From assembly GCF_003334815.1 (NCBI RefSeq), contig NZ_QOWO01000002.1: a stretch of 64,000 nt of DNA; one strand, given 5' to 3'. Below, piece after piece: positions 1 to 24,467 of the stretch. This stretch comes from Escherichia coli. GTDB taxonomy: Bacteria; Pseudomonadota; Gammaproteobacteria; Enterobacterales; Enterobacteriaceae. Each line of letters starts with the position of its first letter. Within the stretch, counting starts at the first letter, position 1. The notes beneath the pieces are model-generated. The model saw nothing but the letters and a program-made list of their open reading frames with translations. It made no database searches and was not told the DNA's origin. Both the position numbers and the translations under genes were made by a program.

Positions 1-1640
1 AAATTGTGGGTTTTCGCGGTATCAACCGTTTGTCGTTGATGCTGGAACAAAACAACGTCCTGATTGGGGAAAACGCGTGGGGTAAATCCAGCTTGCTGGA
101 CGCCTTAACTCTGCTGCTATCGCCAGAATCAGATCTCTACCATTTTGAGCGCGACGATTTCTGGTTCCCGCCGGGAGATATCAACGGGCGAGAACATCAT
201 CTGCATATTATTTTGACCTTCCGCGAATCGCTGCCAGGCCGACATCGGGTTCGCCGTTATCGGCCGCTGGAAGCGTGCTGGACGCCATGCACCGATGGCT
301 ATCACCGTATTTTTTATCGTCTGGAAGGGGAGAGTGCGGAAGACGGCAGCGTGATGACACTGCGCAGTTTTCTCGATAAAGACGGACATCCGATTGATGT
401 CGAGGATATTAACGATCAGGCACGCCATCTGGTGCGTTTAATGCCGGTGCTGCGCTTGCGTGATGCCCGTTTTATGCGCCGTATTCGTAACGGCACGGTG
501 CCAAATGTCCCTAATGTGGAAGTCACCGCGCGCCAGCTCGATTTCCTCGCCCGTGAGTTATCCTCACATCCGCAAAATCTCTCTGATGGGCAGATTCGTC
601 AGGGACTTTCCGCAATGGTACAGCTGCTTGAGCATTATTTCTCTGAGCAGGGGGCCGGACAGGCGCGATATCGTTTAATGCGGCGGCGAGCCAGCAATGA
701 GCAACGAAGCTGGCGCTATCTGGATATCATCAACCGGATGATTGACCGACCTGGTGGGCGCTCGTATCGGGTTATTTTGCTCGGCCTATTTGCTACTTTG
801 TTGCAGGCAAAAGGCACATTGCGACTGGATAAAGACGCCCGTCCATTGTTGCTGATCGAAGATCCAGAAACCCGTTTACACCCCATTATGCTTTCAGTTG
901 CCTGGCATCTGTTGAATCTTCTGCCATTGCAGCGCATTGCCACCACCAACTCGGGTGAGTTGCTTTCGTTAACGCCGGTAGAGCATGTTTGCCGACTGGT
1001 ACGTGAGTCCTCGCGCGTTGCCGCCTGGCGTCTGGGGCCGAGTGGCTTGAGTACCGAAGATAGCCGACGCATATCCTTTCACATTCGTTTTAACCGTCCG
1101 TCATCGCTGTTTGCACGCTGCTGGTTGCTGGTGGAAGGGGAAACGGAAACCTGGGTTATCAATGAACTGGCGCGTCAGTGCGGACATCATTTTGATGCCG
1201 AAGGGATCAAGGTCATTGAGTTTGCCCAGTCCGGGCTAAAGCCACTGGTTAAATTTGCCCGCCGAATGGGGATTGAATGGCATGTACTGGTCGATGGCGA
1301 TGAAGCAGGGAAGAAATATGCCGCTACGGTACGCAGCCTGTTGAATAACGATCGGGAAGCCGAACGAGAACATTTAACGGCGTTACCGGCGCTGGATATG
1401 GAACATTTTATGTATCGCCAGGGATTTTCCGATGTGTTCCACCGCATGGCGCAAATCCCGGAAAATGTACCGATGAATCTACGCAAAATTATCTCGAAAG
1501 CGATCCATCGCTCTTCCAAACCCGATCTTGCCATTGAAGTGGCAATGGAGGCAGGACGTCGTGGTGTGGACTCCGTACCGACGCTGCTGAAAAAAATGTT
1601 CTCACGCGTGCTGTGGCTGGCGCGCGGTCGCGCGGATTAA
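1..1640 (+). CDS. ybjD: OLD-family ATP-dependent endonuclease-like protein (AAA ATPase N-terminal region), 5' end cut by window edge
   Basis: Frame of ORF 6..1640 is open to position 1 (track start at 6 is a GTG inside the gene); P-loop GENAWGKSSLLD; followed by ybjX and macAB as in E. coli. Confidence 0.85.
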   Translation, partial: IVGFRGINRLSLMLEQNNVLIGENAWGKSSLLDALTLLLSPESDLYHFERDDFWFPPGDINGREHHLHIILTFRESLPGRHRVRRYRPLEACWTPCTDGYHRIFYRLEGESAEDGSVMTLRSFLDKDGHPIDVEDINDQARHLVRLMPVLRLRDARFMRRIRNGTVPNVPNVEVTARQLDFLARELSSHPQNLSDGQIRQGLSAMVQLLEHYFSEQGAGQARYRLMRRRASNEQRSWRYLDIINRMIDRPGGRSYRVILLGLFATLLQAKGTLRLDKDARPLLLIEDPETRLHPIMLSVAWHLLNLLPLQRIATTNSGELLSLTPVEHVCRLVRESSRVAAWRLGPSGLSTEDSRRISFHIRFNRPSSLFARCWLLVEGETETWVINELARQCGHHFDAEGIKVIEFAQSGLKPLVKFARRMGIEWHVLVDGDEAGKKYAATVRSLLNNDREAEREHLTALPALDMEHFMYRQGFSDVFHRMAQIPENVPMNLRKIISKAIHRSSKPDLAIEVAMEAGRRGVDSVPTLLKKMFSRVLWLARGRAD

Positions 1641-2629
1641 CCGCGAAACATCGTGGCCATTTGTGGCTGAATAGCGTCGAGCATCTCATAGCGCCGACGG
1701 TATTCAGCCCGTTTTTTACTGGCGATTTCGGCAATCTCTTTTCGTGCTATCTGTGCTGGAAGGCGGTAATGGCGTTCAGCATCACATACGCCGCCAACCG
1801 ATTCCCAGAAAGCGTTGTAATCAGCGTGGATCTTGCCTTCTTTATCGCGATAACGCAGGCTGCGGTAAATATGCGTTTCATTGCTGACGGCAATAATCTG
1901 CTCTACCTGCAAACGTTGGGCAAACAGACAGGCCGCTTCCATCACGAGGCGTTTGGGAAATAGCCCGTGGCAGGCTTTCGTCGCATTCTGGATTTCCTGA
2001 TGTGGAATTTCCCATTTTGCGCCTTGCAGTCCGCCAATAAACATCGTTCTTTTCCCCTGATATTCACACAGGGTAAACGTGATCTCTGCCAGAGGAATAC
2101 CTTCGCTGTTGCGGAACAGGATTGTGCTGTCACCTTCTTTATCCATTGAGATCATCATGGTCAGCTCAAGCGTGAACTGCTCGCCGTTTTTGCCTTCCAG
2201 CTTCGCCAGTTGCAGCCCGGGGGTATTCAAATATAAGCTGAATTCTTCCGCCGACATACATTCGCGGAGTAACGCATAATGGTAACGTAACGCCTCCAGC
2301 AATTGCTTACGGCTAAGATTCGCCGCAAGGTAAGGGCGATGCAGACGCACAGGCAGTCGCGGCTGGCGCGTTAACAATACATTGAGATTAGGCCAGTGGG
2401 AAAGTTCGTTCATCCACTCAACGCTTAAACGCGGCATAATCAACGAGCGCAGCAAAAATTTCTGGCGAAAACTACGGCGATGCCAGAATTTACCCGGCCG
2501 ACACTGTCCACGTGCCAGACTAAGAAAAAGTGACAGGCTGCTGAGAGATTCAGATGGCGTAAAGGTCCGTTCAGTTAGCTGCGACATATTCATGAAATCA
2601 ATGGTTATACATGGCGTCGATTTCACCAT
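1637..2629 (-). CDS. ybjX: DUF535/VirK-like protein YbjX
   Basis: 330-aa ORF; sequence recognised as YbjX; divergent from macA. Confidence 0.85.
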   Translation of the reverse strand: MVKSTPCITIDFMNMSQLTERTFTPSESLSSLSLFLSLARGQCRPGKFWHRRSFRQKFLLRSLIMPRLSVEWMNELSHWPNLNVLLTRQPRLPVRLHRPYLAANLSRKQLLEALRYHYALLRECMSAEEFSLYLNTPGLQLAKLEGKNGEQFTLELTMMISMDKEGDSTILFRNSEGIPLAEITFTLCEYQGKRTMFIGGLQGAKWEIPHQEIQNATKACHGLFPKRLVMEAACLFAQRLQVEQIIAVSNETHIYRSLRYRDKEGKIHADYNAFWESVGGVCDAERHYRLPAQIARKEIAEIASKKRAEYRRRYEMLDAIQPQMATMFRG

Positions 2630-2743
2630 TGCGTATCTTAACCAAACATCAATAGTGTGATTACTAACGTAAATTTTAGGGTTTTGTTGATATTTCGTTG
2701 AAGTTAATGACCCGGATTGGCATATGGAGTATTCAGAAAATTT

Positions 2744-3859
2744 ATGAAAAAGCGGAAAACCGTGAAGAAGCGTTACGTTATTGCGCTGGTGATAGTCATC
2801 GCCGGACTGATTACGTTATGGAGAATTCTTAACGCACCCGTGCCGACTTATCAGACGCTGATTGTGCGCCCCGGTGATTTACAGCAAAGCGTGCTGGCGA
2901 CCGGAAAGCTGGACGCGCTGCGTAAGGTTGATGTGGGCGCGCAGGTCAGCGGTCAGTTGAAAACTCTGTCGGTGGCGATTGGCGATAAAGTAAAAAAAGA
3001 CCAGCTTTTAGGGGTTATTGATCCTGAACAGGCTGAAAACCAGATTAAGGAGGTCGAAGCAACGCTGATGGAGCTACGTGCGCAGCGGCAGCAGGCGGAA
3101 GCGGAGCTGAAACTGGCGCGGGTGACGTATTCCCGTCAGCAACGTCTGGCACAAACGAAGGCTGTTTCACAGCAGGATCTCGACACCGCCGCGACGGAGA
3201 TGGCTGTGAAACAGGCGCAAATTGGCACCATTGACGCGCAAATCAAGCGCAATCAGGCTTCTCTCGATACGGCTAAAACCAATCTCGATTACACTCGCAT
3301 CGTTGCCCCGATGGCCGGGGAAGTCACGCAAATCACCACTCTGCAAGGCCAGACGGTGATTGCCGCACAACAAGCACCGAACATTCTGACGCTGGCAGAT
3401 ATGAGCACCATGCTGGTAAAAGCGCAGGTTTCTGAAGCGGATGTAATCCACCTGAAGCCGGGGCAAAAAGCCTGGTTTACGGTGCTTGGCGATCCACTGA
3501 CGCGCTACGAGGGGCAAATCAAGGATGTACTACCGACGCCGGAAAAGGTTAACGACGCTATTTTCTATTACGCCCGTTTTGAAGTCCCCAACCCCAATGG
3601 TTTGCTGCGGCTGGATATGACTGCGCAAGTGCATATTCAGCTCACCGATGTGAAAAATGTGCTGACGATCCCTCTGTCGGCGTTAGGCGATCCGGTTGGC
3701 GATAATCGTTATAAAGTCAAATTGTTGCGTAATGGTGAAACACGCGAGCGTGAAGTGACGATTGGCGCACGTAACGATACCGATGTTGAGATTGTCAAAG
3801 GGCTTGAAGCGGGCGATGAAGTGGTGATTGGTGAGGCCAAACCAGGAGCTGCACAATGA
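2744..3859 (+). CDS. macA: Macrolide efflux membrane fusion protein MacA
   Basis: ORF 2717..3859; start placed at [11 protein letters not shown] (371 aa); coiled-coil periplasmic adaptor; 4-bp ATGA overlap with macB. Confidence 0.9.
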
Positions 3860-5802
3860 CGCCTTTGCTCGAATTAAAGGATATTCGTCGCAGCTATCCT
3901 GCCGGTGATGAGCAGGTTGAGGTGCTGAAGGGCATCAGCCTCGATATTTATGCGGGTGAGATGATCGCGATTGTTGGCGCTTCGGGTTCCGGTAAATCGA
4001 CCCTGATGAATATTCTCGGCTGTCTGGATAAGGCCACCAGCGGCACCTATCGCGTCGCCGGTCAGGATGTTGCCACGCTGGACGCCGATGCGCTGGCGCA
4101 ACTGCGCCGCGAGCATTTCGGCTTTATTTTCCAGCGTTACCATTTGCTTTCGCATTTAACCGCCGAGCAGAACGTTGAAGTACCCGCCGTCTATGCTGGT
4201 CTTGAGCGGAAACAGCGACTGCTTCGTGCCCAGGAGTTGCTGCAACGGCTGGGGCTGGAAGACCGTACAGAGTATTATCCGGCACAGCTTTCGGGTGGTC
4301 AGCAACAGCGCGTCAGCATCGCGCGGGCATTGATGAACGGTGGTCAGGTAATTCTTGCCGATGAACCAACCGGCGCACTGGACAGCCATTCTGGCGAAGA
4401 GGTGATGGCGATCCTGCATCAGCTGCGCGATCGTGGGCATACGGTGATTATCGTCACCCACGATCCGCAGGTCGCTGCTCAGGCCGAGCGGGTGATCGAA
4501 ATTCGCGACGGCGAAATTGTGCGCAATCCTCCCGCCATTGAAAAAGTGAATGTTACTGGCGGGACGGAACCTGTTGTCAACACGGTGTCTGGCTGGCGGC
4601 AGTTTGTCAGCGGTTTTAACGAGGCGCTGACGATGGCATGGCGGGCGCTGGCAGCGAATAAAATGCGTACTTTACTGACCATGCTGGGGATTATTATCGG
4701 TATTGCGTCGGTGGTTTCCATTGTCGTGGTGGGTGACGCCGCCAAACAAATGGTGCTGGCGGATATTCGTTCTATTGGTACGAATACTATTGATGTCTAT
4801 CCCGGGAAAGATTTTGGCGATGACGATCCGCAATATCAGCAGGCGCTGAAGTACGACGACTTAATCGCCATCCAAAAACAACCGTGGGTCGCCTCAGCCA
4901 CACCTGCCGTCTCGCAAAACCTGCGCCTGCGTTATAACAATGTTGATGTTGCTGCCAGTGCCAATGGCGTGAGCGGCGATTATTTTAATGTCTATGGCAT
5001 GACCTTCAGTGAAGGAAACACCTTTAATCAGGAGCAGCTGAACGGTCGTGCGCAGGTCGTGGTTCTCGACAGTAATACTCGCCGCCAGCTTTTCCCCCAT
5101 AAAGCAGATGTGGTTGGCGAGGTGATTCTGGTCGGCAATATGCCCGCCAGAGTCATTGGTGTGGCGGAAGAAAAACAGTCGATGTTTGGTAGCAGTAAAG
5201 TGCTGCGTGTCTGGCTACCTTACAGCACGATGTCCGGGCGAGTTATGGGCCAGTCGTGGCTTAACTCCATTACTGTCAGGGTGAAAGAAGGATTTGACAG
5301 CGCCGAGGCGGAACAGCAACTCACGCGTTTACTTTCACTGCGCCACGGAAAGAAGGATTTCTTTACCTGGAACATGGACGGCGTCTTGAAAACTGTTGAA
5401 AAGACCACACGTACTTTACAACTGTTTCTGACGCTGGTGGCGGTGATTTCGCTGGTGGTGGGCGGTATTGGTGTAATGAATATTATGCTGGTGTCAGTGA
5501 CCGAGCGGACGCGGGAAATTGGCATTCGCATGGCTGTAGGTGCGCGAGCAAGCGATGTTTTGCAACAGTTCCTGATCGAAGCCGTACTGGTTTGCCTGGT
5601 CGGTGGCGCGTTGGGAATAACACTGTCACTGTTAATTGCTTTCACCTTGCAGCTTTTCTTACCCGGCTGGGAGATTGGTTTTTCACCGTTGGCGCTGCTG
5701 CTGGCGTTTCTCTGCTCGACGGTCACCGGGATTTTATTTGGCTGGTTACCCGCACGAAATGCGGCACGACTGGATCCAGTAGATGCTCTGGCACGAGAGT
5801 AA
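3856..5802 (+). CDS. macB: Macrolide ABC exporter ATPase/permease MacB
   Basis: 648-aa ORF; N-terminal Walker [18 protein letters not shown] signature; C-terminal FtsX-like permease. Confidence 0.93.
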
Positions 5803-5812
5803 TTTTTGAGAT

Positions 5813-5843
5813 AAAAATGCCAGCCGATCGGGCTGGCATTTTG
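5813..5843. terminator. Bidirectional Rho-independent terminator between macB and cspD
   Basis: Perfect hairpin aaaatgccagcc-gatc-ggctggcatttt flanked by T/A runs on both strands. Confidence 0.6.
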
Positions 5844-5874
5844 CCTTTAGGATGTACACAATGAGACAGAAGAG

Positions 5875-6099
5875 CTATGCGACTGCCGCTTCTACTTCGA
5901 CGGGCACAATAACACTGGCGTGATTGCCTTTTGGCCCCTGGTGGACATCAAACTGAACGGATTGTCCAGCTTTTAGCGTTCTGTAACCATCCATCTGAAT
6001 GGTGGAATAATGAGCGAAAATATCTTCGCCGCCGCCTTCAGGGCAGATGAAACCAAACCCTTTGGCATTGTTGAACCACTTAACAGTACCCTTTTCCAT
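5875..6099 (-). CDS. cspD: Cold-shock-domain protein CspD (stationary-phase replication inhibitor)
   Basis: ORF 5875..6129; start placed at MEKGTVKWFNNAKGFGFI (74 aa); canonical CSD motifs. Confidence 0.92.
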   Translation of the reverse strand: MEKGTVKWFNNAKGFGFICPEGGGEDIFAHYSTIQMDGYRTLKAGQSVQFDVHQGPKGNHASVIVPVEVEAAVA

Positions 6100-6421
6100 G
6101 CTTCGACATCCTTCGCAAATCTTATACAAGTAAGATGGAATAAACCGGGGTCAGAGAGGGGGCTGTTCAAAACCTCGCCAACTCTAGAAATACAATTTAG
6201 AGAATTAGGGCGAGCCGTCAAGCATTTGACAGGGGACAAGGGGCAGGTATGAATCAAAAATTTGAAGCAGTTAACGCTATTGACAGGAATGTGACAGATG
6301 TCGCTGATGCCAACGATAGATGATAGTTATCTATCATGTGGAGTAGATTGGTCAGGCAAATAAGCTCTTGTCAGCGGCAGGGCGTTCTGCCGATAACCGT
6401 AACCGAAGATGATAACTGACA

Positions 6422-6742
6422 ATGGGTAAAACGAACGACTGGCTGGACTTTGATCAACTGGCGGAAGAAAAAGTTCGCGACGCGCTAAAACCGCCATCTA
6501 TGTATAAAGTGATATTAGTCAATGATGATTACACTCCGATGGAGTTTGTTATTGACGTGTTACAAAAATTCTTTTCTTATGATGTAGAACGTGCAACGCA
6601 ATTGATGCTCGCTGTTCACTACCAGGGGAAGGCCATTTGCGGAGTCTTTACCGCCGAGGTTGCAGAAACCAAAGTGGCGATGGTGAACAAGTACGCGAGG
6701 GAGAATGAGCATCCATTGCTGTGTACGCTAGAAAAAGCCTGA
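6422..6742 (+). CDS. clpS: ClpS, N-degron adaptor for ClpAP
   Basis: 106-aa ORF recognised as ClpS; immediately upstream of clpA. Confidence 0.93.
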
Positions 6743-6772
6743 ATGCAGGCATAAAAATTGGGGGAGGTGCCT

Positions 6773-9049
6773 ATGCTCAATCAAGAACTGGAACTCAGTT
6801 TAAATATGGCTTTCGCCAGAGCGCGCGAGCACCGTCATGAGTTTATGACCGTCGAGCACTTGTTACTGGCGCTGCTCAGTAACCCATCTGCCCGGGAGGC
6901 GCTGGAAGCGTGTTCTGTGGATTTGGTTGCGCTCCGTCAGGAACTGGAAGCCTTTATTGAACAAACCACACCCGTTCTGCCTGCCAGTGAAGAGGAGCGC
7001 GACACACAGCCGACGCTGAGTTTTCAGCGTGTACTGCAACGTGCGGTCTTCCATGTCCAGTCCTCCGGTCGCAATGAGGTTACCGGTGCAAACGTTCTGG
7101 TCGCTATCTTTAGCGAACAGGAGTCGCAGGCGGCATATCTGTTGCGTAAACATGAAGTCAGCCGTCTCGATGTGGTGAACTTTATCTCTCATGGCACGCG
7201 TAAAGACGAGCCGACACAGTCTTCTGATCCTGGCAGCCAGCCAAACAGCGAAGAACAAGCTGGTGGGGAGGAACGTATGGAGAATTTCACGACGAACCTG
7301 AATCAGCTTGCGCGCGTGGGCGGAATCGACCCACTGATTGGTCGTGAGAAGGAGCTGGAGCGTGCTATTCAGGTTCTCTGCCGTCGCCGTAAAAACAACC
7401 CGCTGCTGGTGGGGGAATCTGGTGTCGGTAAAACCGCGATTGCGGAAGGTCTTGCCTGGCGAATTGTTCAGGGCGATGTGCCGGAAGTGATGGCTGACTG
7501 TACGATTTACTCTCTCGATATCGGTTCTCTGTTAGCGGGCACAAAATATCGCGGCGACTTTGAAAAACGTTTTAAAGCGTTGCTCAAGCAGCTGGAGCAG
7601 GACACTAACAGCATCCTGTTTATTGATGAGATCCACACCATTATCGGTGCGGGTGCAGCGTCTGGTGGTCAGGTCGATGCGGCTAACCTAATCAAACCGT
7701 TGCTCTCCAGCGGTAAAATTCGTGTAATTGGTTCGACAACCTATCAGGAGTTCAGCAACATTTTCGAGAAAGACCGTGCTCTGGCGCGTCGCTTCCAGAA
7801 AATTGATATTACTGAACCGTCGATCGAAGAAACTGTTCAAATCATCAATGGCCTGAAACCGAAGTATGAAGCGCACCACGACGTGCGTTATACCGCAAAA
7901 GCGGTGCGTGCGGCGGTAGAGCTGGCGGTGAAATACATTAACGATCGTCATCTGCCGGATAAAGCCATTGATGTTATCGACGAAGCGGGCGCTCGCGCAC
8001 GCCTGATGCCGGTAAGCAAACGCAAGAAAACCGTTAATGTGGCGGATATTGAGTCCGTGGTGGCCCGTATTGCACGCATTCCAGAGAAGAGTGTTTCTCA
8101 GAGTGATCGTGATACCCTGAAAAACCTCGGCGATCGCTTGAAAATGCTGGTCTTCGGTCAGGATAAAGCCATTGAGGCGCTGACTGAAGCCATTAAGATG
8201 GCGCGTGCAGGTTTAGGTCACGAACATAAACCGGTTGGTTCGTTCCTGTTTGCCGGCCCTACCGGGGTCGGGAAAACAGAGGTGACGGTACAGCTTTCGA
8301 AAGCTTTGGGCATTGAGCTTCTGCGCTTTGATATGTCCGAGTATATGGAACGCCATACCGTCAGCCGTCTTATTGGTGCGCCTCCGGGATACGTTGGTTT
8401 TGATCAGGGCGGTTTGCTGACTGATGCGGTCATCAAGCATCCACATGCGGTGCTGCTGCTGGACGAAATCGAGAAAGCGCACCCGGACGTGTTCAATATT
8501 CTGTTGCAGGTGATGGATAACGGTACGCTGACCGATAACAACGGACGCAAAGCAGACTTCCGTAACGTGGTGCTGGTGATGACCACCAACGCCGGGGTAC
8601 GGGAAACTGAGCGCAAATCCATTGGTCTTATCCACCAGGATAACAGCACCGATGCGATGGAAGAGATCAAGAAGATCTTTACACCGGAATTCCGTAACCG
8701 TCTCGACAACATTATCTGGTTTGATCATCTGTCAACCGACGTGATCCATCAGGTGGTGGATAAATTCATCGTCGAGTTGCAGGTTCAGCTGGATCAGAAA
8801 GGTGTTTCTCTGGAAGTGAGCCAGGAAGCGCGTAACTGGCTGGCCGAGAAAGGTTACGACCGGGCAATGGGCGCTCGTCCGATGGCGCGTGTCATCCAGG
8901 ACAACCTGAAAAAACCGCTCGCCAACGAACTGCTGTTTGGTTCGCTGGTGGACGGCGGTCAGGTCACCGTCGCGCTGGATAAAGAGAAAAATGAGCTGAC
9001 TTACGGATTCCAGAGTGCACAAAAGCACAAGGCGGAAGCAGCGCATTAA
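6773..9049 (+). CDS. clpA: ClpA, ATP-dependent Clp protease ATPase/chaperone subunit
   Basis: ORF 6758..9049; start placed at [11 protein letters not shown] (758 aa); two AAA+ modules ([16 protein letters not shown]). Confidence 0.95.
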
Positions 9050-9074
9050 TCTGATTGTTAGGTAGGTTGGTCAA

Positions 9075-9111
9075 GTCCGTAATCTCGAAAGAGGTTACGG
9101 ACTTTTTGTTT
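9075..9111 (+). terminator. Probable Rho-independent terminator of clpA
   Basis: Hairpin gtccgtaatctc-gaaa-gaggttacggac (one mismatch) followed by TTTTTGTTT. Confidence 0.5.
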
Positions 9112-9261
9112 ATGGGGTGGAGGAGGTTCAGACCCTTTTTTTAATGATGATGGTAAGTTGTTGATAATTAGTGCTGCGGGAAGGTAAGGATAAAAAAGGG
9201 TGCTGCAGGAGAATGGGATGGTTTTGCTTTATTAACAACGGGCTAAACGTGTAGTATTTGA

Positions 9262-9349
9262 GTTCACTGCCGTACAGGCAGCTTAGAAATTCACAGGTAA
9301 CATACTCCACCCGCCCACCATGTTCACTGCCGTACAGACAGATAAAATG
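9262..9349 (+). CRISPR. Orphan type I-F (Ypest-type, CRISPR4-like) mini-array: 2 repeats, 1 spacer, no adjacent cas genes
   Basis: 28-bp repeat GTTCACTGCCGTACAGGCAGCTTAGAAA at 9262-9289; 32-bp spacer ttcacaggtaacatactccacccgcccaccat at 9290-9321; degenerate terminal repeat GTTCACTGCCGTACAGACAGATAAAATG at 9322-9349. Confidence 0.7.
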
Positions 9350-9350
9350 C

Positions 9351-9380
9351 GAAAAAAAAGCTCGCACTTTCGTACGAGCT
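9351..9380 (-). terminator. Rho-independent terminator of serW
   Basis: On minus strand, hairpin agctcg-(loop)-cgagct followed by an 8-U run. Confidence 0.55.
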
Positions 9381-9392
9381 CTTCTTTAAATA

Positions 9393-9480
9393 TGGCGGTG
9401 AGGGGGGGATTCGAACCCCCGATACGTTGCCGTATACACACTTTCCAGGCGTGCTCCTTCAGCCACTCGGACACCTCACC
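9393..9480 (-). tRNA. serW: tRNA-Ser (anticodon GGA), 88 nt including CCA
   Basis: Reverse complement reads GGTGAGGTGTCCGAGTGGCTGAAGGAGCACGCCTGGAAAGTGTG...GGTTCGAATCCCCCCCTCACCGCCA; long variable arm typical of class II tRNA-Ser. Confidence 0.93.
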
Positions 9481-9668
9481 AAATTGTTTTGCTACCAAAC
9501 CTCATGGGTGGCAACGGGGCGCTACTATAGGGAGTTGGAGTAAAACGGTCAAGAAGAATTTTAATGATAATTATTGTTTGCTCATACTGTAAACAAGTTG
9601 TGCAGTATATCTACATCGAGACAAGTTACGGACTTATACTTCCAAAGTACTTCATACATATCACAAAA

Positions 9669-9697
9669 TAAAAAGGCCGGTTAAACCGACCTTTTAC
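9669..9697 (-). terminator. Rho-independent terminator of infA
   Basis: Minus-strand hairpin aaggtcgg-ttta-accggcctt followed by TTTTTATTTT. Confidence 0.55.
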
Positions 9698-9733: not shown

Positions 9734-9955
<222 letters not shown>

Positions 9956-24229: not shown

Positions 24230-24249
24230 TACCCAATTTTTCTGAATCT

Positions 24250-24277
24250 AAAAAGCGCCTGCGGGCGCTTTTTTTGT
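24250..24277 (+). terminator. Rho-independent terminator of serS
   Basis: aaaaagcgcc-tgcg-ggcgc followed by TTTTTTTG. Confidence 0.7.
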
Positions 24278-24467
24278 CTCCCTTTGATACCGAACAATAA
24301 TTACTCCTCACTTACACGTAATACTACTTTCGAGTGAAAATCTACCTATCTCTTTGATTTTCAAATTATTCGATGTATACAAGCCTATATAGCGAACTGC
24401 TATAGAAATAATTACACAATACGGTTTGTTACTGGAATCAATCGTGAGCAAGCTTGAGTGAGCCATT

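Follow-up and report, generated by a model that had tools for sequence, protein, structure and literature searches.

A K-12-type orphan type I-F CRISPR array with a spacer against cas1f between clpA and serW of Escherichia coli

The segment at 9262-9349 of the window (the whole stretch of E. coli DNA analysed here, 64,000 nt) is the known orphan anti-cas array of E. coli K-12, an element that has already been described, down to its locus and strain type. Judged from its sequence, the single spacer is an acquired spacer directed against cas1f. The array consists of a leader, an intact repeat, a spacer derived from an Escherichia cas1f and a decayed repeat, and probably acts by conditional self-directed interference. 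A CRISPR array can thus outlive its own cas genes and work against them, and such an anti-cas array would limit re-acquisition of an immune system that the lineage apparently does better without. The anti-cas idea was proposed in 2010 (PMC2886076) and, as summarized in two reviews, was tested in 2016 for the same E. coli locus (PMC8616872, PMC5972030). The window adds a confirmed instance in the K-12 form together with small comparative details, namely a spacer nearest to cas1f of the genus Escherichia, a seed position at which no current E. coli allele matches the spacer, and a damaged terminal hairpin.

Table 1. Features of the clpA-infA region of the window. Positions are numbered from the first base of the window.
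Feature	Position	Strand	Description	Sequence
clpA, upstream flank	6773..9049	+	ORF end 9049; start inferred from the annotated clpA length of 2277 nt	
clpA intrinsic terminator hairpin	9073..9104	+	14-bp stem plus T tail; upstream limit of the CRISPR leader	
CRISPR leader	9105..9261	+	Shares homology with the leader of CRISPR4.1, the cas-linked array next to clpA in I-F-positive strains	
Repeat 1 (R1)	9262-9289	+	Perfect type I-F repeat (CRISPR-4 / Rfam CRISPR-DR4)	GTTCACTGCCGTACAGGCAGCTTAGAAA
Predicted mature crRNA, 60 nt, given Cas6f	9282-9341	+	8-nt 5' handle, spacer and 20-nt 3' R2 hairpin; inferred from the I-F processing rule	CUUAGAAA (5' handle)
Spacer, 32 nt	9290-9321	+	Anti-cas1f; antisense to cas1f codons 33-43	TTCACAGGTAACATACTCCACCCGCCCACCAT
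Repeat 2 (R2)	9322-9349	+	Degenerate terminal repeat	GTTCACTGCCGTACAGACAGATAAAATG
serW terminator hairpin	9352-9387	- (strand call)	Starts 3 nt past R2; same stem on the + strand, then T-rich	CTTCTTTAAAT (T-rich, + strand)
serW, tRNA-Ser(GGA), downstream flank	9393..9480	-	ARAGORN, Rfam tRNA, LF82 annotation; separated from the array by the cas operon in cas-positive strains	
infA	9734-9952	-	Beyond serW	

The original prediction described two 28-bp I-F repeats, the second degenerate at its 3' end, on either side of one 32-nt spacer of the length expected for I-F arrays, and this description held throughout. The repeat-spacer-repeat geometry is 28/32/28 nt with a start-to-start spacing of 60 nt, as in the LF82 arrays. 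R1 matched Rfam CRISPR-DR4 (RF01317) at 28/28 positions with 50.1 bits (gathering score 35), and its sequence is that of all 33 repeats of the LF82 I-F arrays. It folds into the hairpin CUGCC-GUACA-GGCAG, with a 5-bp stem and a 5-nt loop. R2 matches R1 at 19/20 of its first 20 nt, while its last 8 nt are ATAAAATG in place of CTTAGAAA. Besides the 3' degeneration, R2 has a stem substitution, G17A, which is added to the original description. One stem base pair is lost, and the predicted hairpin has an energy of -1.4 kcal/mol versus -8.6 kcal/mol for R1.

There are only two copies of the repeat and the second is imperfect, as might be expected from a chance direct repeat or from a REP-like or terminator-related repeat family unconnected with CRISPR. 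Such an origin is extremely improbable. In pattern searches of the 64 kb the 28-mer occurred once and the 20-nt core twice, against 0.00 and 0.02 expected by chance, and none of the shuffles gave two or more matches. The full-length CRISPR-DR4 match above the gathering score and the identity with the 33 LF82 repeats also argue against it. A scan allowing up to four mismatches found no I-F repeat copies in the 64-kb window beyond R1 and R2, and the same scan found no I-E repeats there. The repeat falls in the I-F family and no larger non-CRISPR family was found to contain it, the two points on which the original prediction had staked itself.

Gene names in the window were assigned because of the ~98% synteny with the annotated LF82 chromosome. 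Window positions 1-9289 are 98.3% identical to the macA-macB-cspD-clpS-clpA region of LF82, and no base differs from E. coli K-12 NEB 5-alpha in the 632 nt surrounding the array. The gene order is clpA - array - serW - infA, so that the array lies between clpA and serW, where it was originally placed. The hairpin that follows R2 is probably a bidirectional terminator that also ends the CRISPR transcript, as its stem and T-rich flank on the + strand suggest. Three ORFs, 9128-9367 (-), 9283-9498 (-) and 9320-9592 (+), overlap the tRNA and the repeats and were regarded as spurious. Low Rfam scores near the array (sX4, Thr_leader and Plastid-psbl-rps4) were far under their gathering scores, overlap the tRNA and the terminator, and were rejected. 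Elsewhere in the window, 24243-24377 (-) matches the enterobacterial sRNA STnc130 over its full length (Rfam RF02084, 140 bits, gathering score 55). Some E. coli genomes have an 'RtT sRNA' annotation and ~180 extra bases in the clpA-serW intergenic region, both absent from the window.

The original prediction also stated that the window contains no cas genes. For I-F this was borne out, since tblastn with the six LF82 Cas proteins identified no I-F cas genes in the 64-kb window (best E = 0.049). The sole related match to Cas1f was the spacer itself (9322-9290). Because adjoining I-F cas genes are absent from the 64-kb window, the array was classified as an orphan and not as part of a complete CRISPR-Cas system. 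The K-12 genome with the identical locus has a single spacer match, so it has no cas1f protospacer.

The cas-positive strain LF82 has the locus order clpA - leader - 10-repeat array - cas1f-cas3f-csy1-csy2-csy3-cas6f - serW - leader - 23-repeat array - infA. By blastn, homology between the window and LF82 is unbroken across clpA and the leader up to precisely the final base of R1, where it breaks off; it starts again at the serW terminator and once more at infA. Compared with LF82 the window lacks two segments, one of 9.1 kb (the cas operon plus nine spacer units) and one of 1.6 kb (the second array with its leader). Between serW and infA, at 9549-9669, the clpA terminator arm and the leader recur as short, imperfect copies: 9616-9635 matches the terminator arm at 9085-9104 in 17/20 positions, and 9559-9586 is 71% identical to the leader at 9139-9166. 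Window positions 9581-9669 have no LF82 counterpart, and LF82 has its second leader and 23-repeat array there; this stretch and the nearby copies may be the scar of the second array. An I-F system caught in decay was observed in E. coli APEC IMT5155 (NZ_CP005930.1; retrieved locus L003, 1-1730). There cas1f is truncated by the IS66-family element ISCro1 and annotated as a pseudogene; the adjacent array is still present, as is the protospacer region.

Whether the spacer is an anti-cas spacer had been left undecided in the original prediction, and is now settled. The spacer matches LF82 cas1f at 30/32 positions on the antisense strand, in codons for NGGRVEYVTSE (L001, 12001-12032). A 30/32 match by chance within the 9-kb locus was estimated at ~1e-11. 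The dinucleotide CC lies directly 5' of the protospacer in LF82, in the second E. coli cas1f allele and in Escherichia whittamii. For E. coli CRISPR-4 the I-F PAM has been defined as a leader-proximal CC when read on the strand identical to the spacer, and as GG when read on the target strand (PMC3506596). Comparison with phages and plasmids, which had been proposed along with that against I-F cas genes, yielded nothing meaningful. Among phages there was only a 17-nt chance match in phage Lw1, and among PLSDB plasmids only a weak 22/25 match (E = 9, not significant) that happens to sit in a Vitreoscilla cas1f.

Since cas1f adjoins the array in cas-positive strains, a match to cas1f could in principle mean that the 32-nt segment is a scrap of the gene, left between two repeats when the cas operon was deleted. 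The orientation and the PAM effectively refute this reading, to which we give next to no weight. The segment corresponds to the antisense strand, whereas cas1f runs in the direction of the array, and a spacer inverted relative to the neighbouring cas1f must have been acquired. The segment is also exactly 32 nt long, it is directly preceded in cas1f by the I-F PAM, and it originates ~100 nt inside the gene and not at a deletion edge. Finally, sister arrays hold cas3f spacers derived from both strands, which also have CC PAMs.

Having identified the segment as an acquired anti-cas1f spacer, we compared it with the known cas1f alleles. With spacer positions numbered from the PAM side, the two mismatches with LF82 cas1f fall at 4 and 6. 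Among 5426 complete E. coli genomes, 241 carry cas1f, and each has either these two or three mismatches to the spacer. The 5' region of the gene is of the LF82 type in 201 genomes, and 40 genomes have an allele 97% identical to the LF82 type. An example of this second allele (L002) matches the spacer at 29/32 positions, the third mismatch being at position 10. A chimeric query, in which the window spacer was placed in its cas1f context, still left two mismatches to the best E. coli cas1f (98.2% of 112 nt).

Cas1f genes outside E. coli were examined with a wobble-degenerate scan in which one genome represented each species; it gave at least 120 loci. The Cas1f motif GGRVEYVTxEG is widely conserved among them. 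At its variable residue most taxa have Asp (GAY), and Escherichia has Ser (AGC or AGT); the TGT (Cys) codon implied by the spacer occurs in none of the at least 120 loci listed. The best non-E. coli match among those listed is cas1f of E. whittamii Sa2BVA5, which has a CC PAM and agrees with the spacer at 30/32 positions, all but 6 and 28. All matches listed from outside Escherichia are at 27/32 or lower, for example Yersinia pestis with 26/32. In E. whittamii a 42-repeat I-F array (L112, 10566-13062) occupies the same clpA-proximal site with cas1f beyond it, and this cas1f is ~83% identical to that of LF82.

The search of the complete E. coli genomes and of the at least 120 loci listed from other species identified no perfectly matching cas1f, the best being 30/32. 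A perfect source may exist unseen, or the spacer may have mutated after capture. The spacer of the O157:H7 form of the array, which begins TTCACTGG, matches both LF82 and E. whittamii at 31/32 positions, and the R2 of this form keeps GGCAG. Compared with this form, the K-12 form appears to be derived, with T6A in the spacer and G17A in R2. Most simply, the spacer would have been taken from a cas1f of the Escherichia type in which this codon is AGT, with T6A arising afterwards in the K-12 form.

Matches to the spacer were found in 2579/5426 complete E. coli genomes. The exact spacer is in ~1433/5426, and another 888 genomes fall in the 95-99% identity band, which is made up of one-mismatch variants, such as that of O157:H7, and truncated 26-nt matches. 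The exact spacer or a near variant is thus present in ~2,300/5426 complete genomes (>40%), and the remaining matches fall in cas1f. In the sampled members of the exact and 95-99% groups the match lies in unannotated DNA, with one annotated as CRISPR. The spacer is next to clpA in all four loci that were retrieved (L124, L125, L130 and the array L127). No cas1f-bearing genome examined had the anti-cas1f spacer as well, a count that leaves aside at most three genomes with two matches. The top candidates for cas1f and the exact spacer in one genome were rejected as alignment artefacts, their arrays being without the spacer.

Other sampled cas-less E. coli arrays at the same site have one or two spacers. 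Spacers that share 29-31 of 32-33 nt with LF82 cas3f, where a CC PAM adjoins the match, occur there alone or beside the anti-cas1f spacer. The terminal repeat has GGCAG in O157:H7 and AVS0501, and GACAG in the K-12-type array and three other sampled arrays. In E. coli Combat13F7 (L125, 400-427) the anti-cas1f spacer is reduced to 28 nt (TTCACAGGTAACATACTCCACCCACCAT) by a 4-nt internal deletion and follows a 33-nt spacer that matches cas3f, so that in some lineages the anti-cas1f spacer is itself in decay.

The way in which such an array would act can be proposed in steps. Alone it should be without effect, since no I-F Cas proteins are encoded nearby. The array would be transcribed from its leader. 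If a mobile element then introduced an entire I-F cas operon, the resident crRNA would be loaded by the Cas6f and Csy proteins made from it. In I-F processing, Cas6f cleaves after G20 of every repeat, from which the mature crRNA in Table 1 is predicted. The crRNA would pair with the sense strand of the incoming cas1f beside the GG/CC PAM. Cas2-3 would then degrade the incoming DNA, or primed spacer acquisition would reinforce the attack, and the I-F system would fail to establish.

The K-12 form has several features that could limit this activity. A seed mismatch in type I systems, here at position 4, should weaken direct interference and favour priming. The G17A change is in the only downstream repeat and, to judge by the predicted fold, may impair crRNA processing and Csy assembly. 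Because of the position-4 seed mismatch and the weakened R2 hairpin, the K-12-type array may be weak, or may act mainly by priming, against LF82-type cas1f, and may act more directly against alleles like that of E. whittamii. The K-12-type variant is probably still functional. A bolder version of the same argument is that the array, with its T6A and G17A changes, is a functionally weakened derivative of an ancestral anti-cas1f array, and that cas1f acquired the position-4 mismatch as a means of escape, through which I-F systems could coexist with spacer-bearing lineages or invade them. We consider this version unlikely. If true, the locus would be the trace of a continuing arms race in which an anti-cas spacer and its cas target oppose each other, and not a static barrier.

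The same features could be read as signs that the array is an inert fossil, the decaying relic of an ancestral I-F system that gives no protection any more; its spacer would be the trace of ancient self-targeting that favoured loss of cas. The stem-breaking G17A in R2, the derived T6A, the position-4 seed mismatch shared by all E. coli cas1f alleles of the 241 complete genomes, and the minimal array of a single spacer would all fit. A promoter scan also identified no sigma-70 consensus promoter on the + strand of the leader, so that the sequence by itself does not speak for transcription of the array. Against this, the leader is strongly conserved, with ~85 nt before R1 invariant in an alignment of the window, LF82, O157:H7 and AVS0501 (B2-like). 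The same spacer is kept in the large share of genomes given above, and cas-matching spacers are retained in all of the sampled sister arrays. The T6A change should be neutral, as position 6 is unpaired in type I crRNA-target duplexes. The view that self-targeting led to loss of cas is that of Diez-Villasenor 2010, as quoted in PMC2886076 and PMC8616872. Native orphan arrays are described as constitutively expressed and as active in reviews (PMC8616872, PMC5972030), and the persistence of the spacers has been argued to imply selection (PMC2886076). We therefore regard the fossil reading as unlikely and prefer conditional interference.

The original prediction had linked the array with published cas-less CRISPR4 arrays at the clpA-infA locus, and the literature supports that membership (PMC3903273, PMC2886076). 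Touchon & Rocha 2010 found CRISPR3, located between clpS and aat, in all E. coli (PMC2886076). In strains without Ypest (I-F) cas genes it was very short, all of its spacers matching Cas1, Cas3 or Csy2 of this subtype, and they proposed it as an "anti-CRISPR", arguing that the persistence of these spacers implies selection. The Mojica group named the single array of cas-less strains CRISPR4.1-2, at the CRISPR-III locus (Almendros et al. 2014, PMC3903273). Almendros et al. 2016 (Nat Microbiol 1:16081, PMID 27573106), as summarized in the reviews PMC8616872 and PMC5972030 by the same group, reported that native orphan arrays give interference and primed adaptation against plasmids with I-F cas genes. 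The reviews describe how resident crRNAs direct the newly arrived I-F Cas proteins onto the cas genes that entered with them, with priming of spacer acquisition adding to the loss of the plasmid. In a survey of 2025 such spacers occurred in 91% of UPEC strains without cas-F, two of the spacers being directed against cas1f (PMC12736100).

Compared with the orphan array CRISPR4.1-2 / CRISPR3, the window array has the same locus, 28-nt repeat, leader, one-spacer layout, degenerate terminal repeat and cas1f-matching spacer, and there is no difference in kind. The cas-linked CRISPR4.1 of I-F-positive E. coli (LF82, ED1a) has a homologous leader and identical repeats at the same site downstream of clpA. 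In LF82, however, CRISPR4.1 has 10 repeats and spacers that are not aimed at cas genes, whereas the window has one anti-cas1f spacer. The terminal repeat of LF82 has an intact GGCAG hairpin while R2 of the window is damaged, and the adjacent cas1f-cas3f-csy1-3-cas6f operon and the second, 23-repeat array past serW are both absent from the window. The cytotoxic chromosomal self-targeting by the I-F system of Pectobacterium (PMC3630108) likewise involves a spacer against a sequence of its own species with a correct PAM. Unlike that case, the target here is absent from the 64-kb window and presumably from the genome, and the spacer should be non-toxic and conditional on entry of the cognate cas genes.
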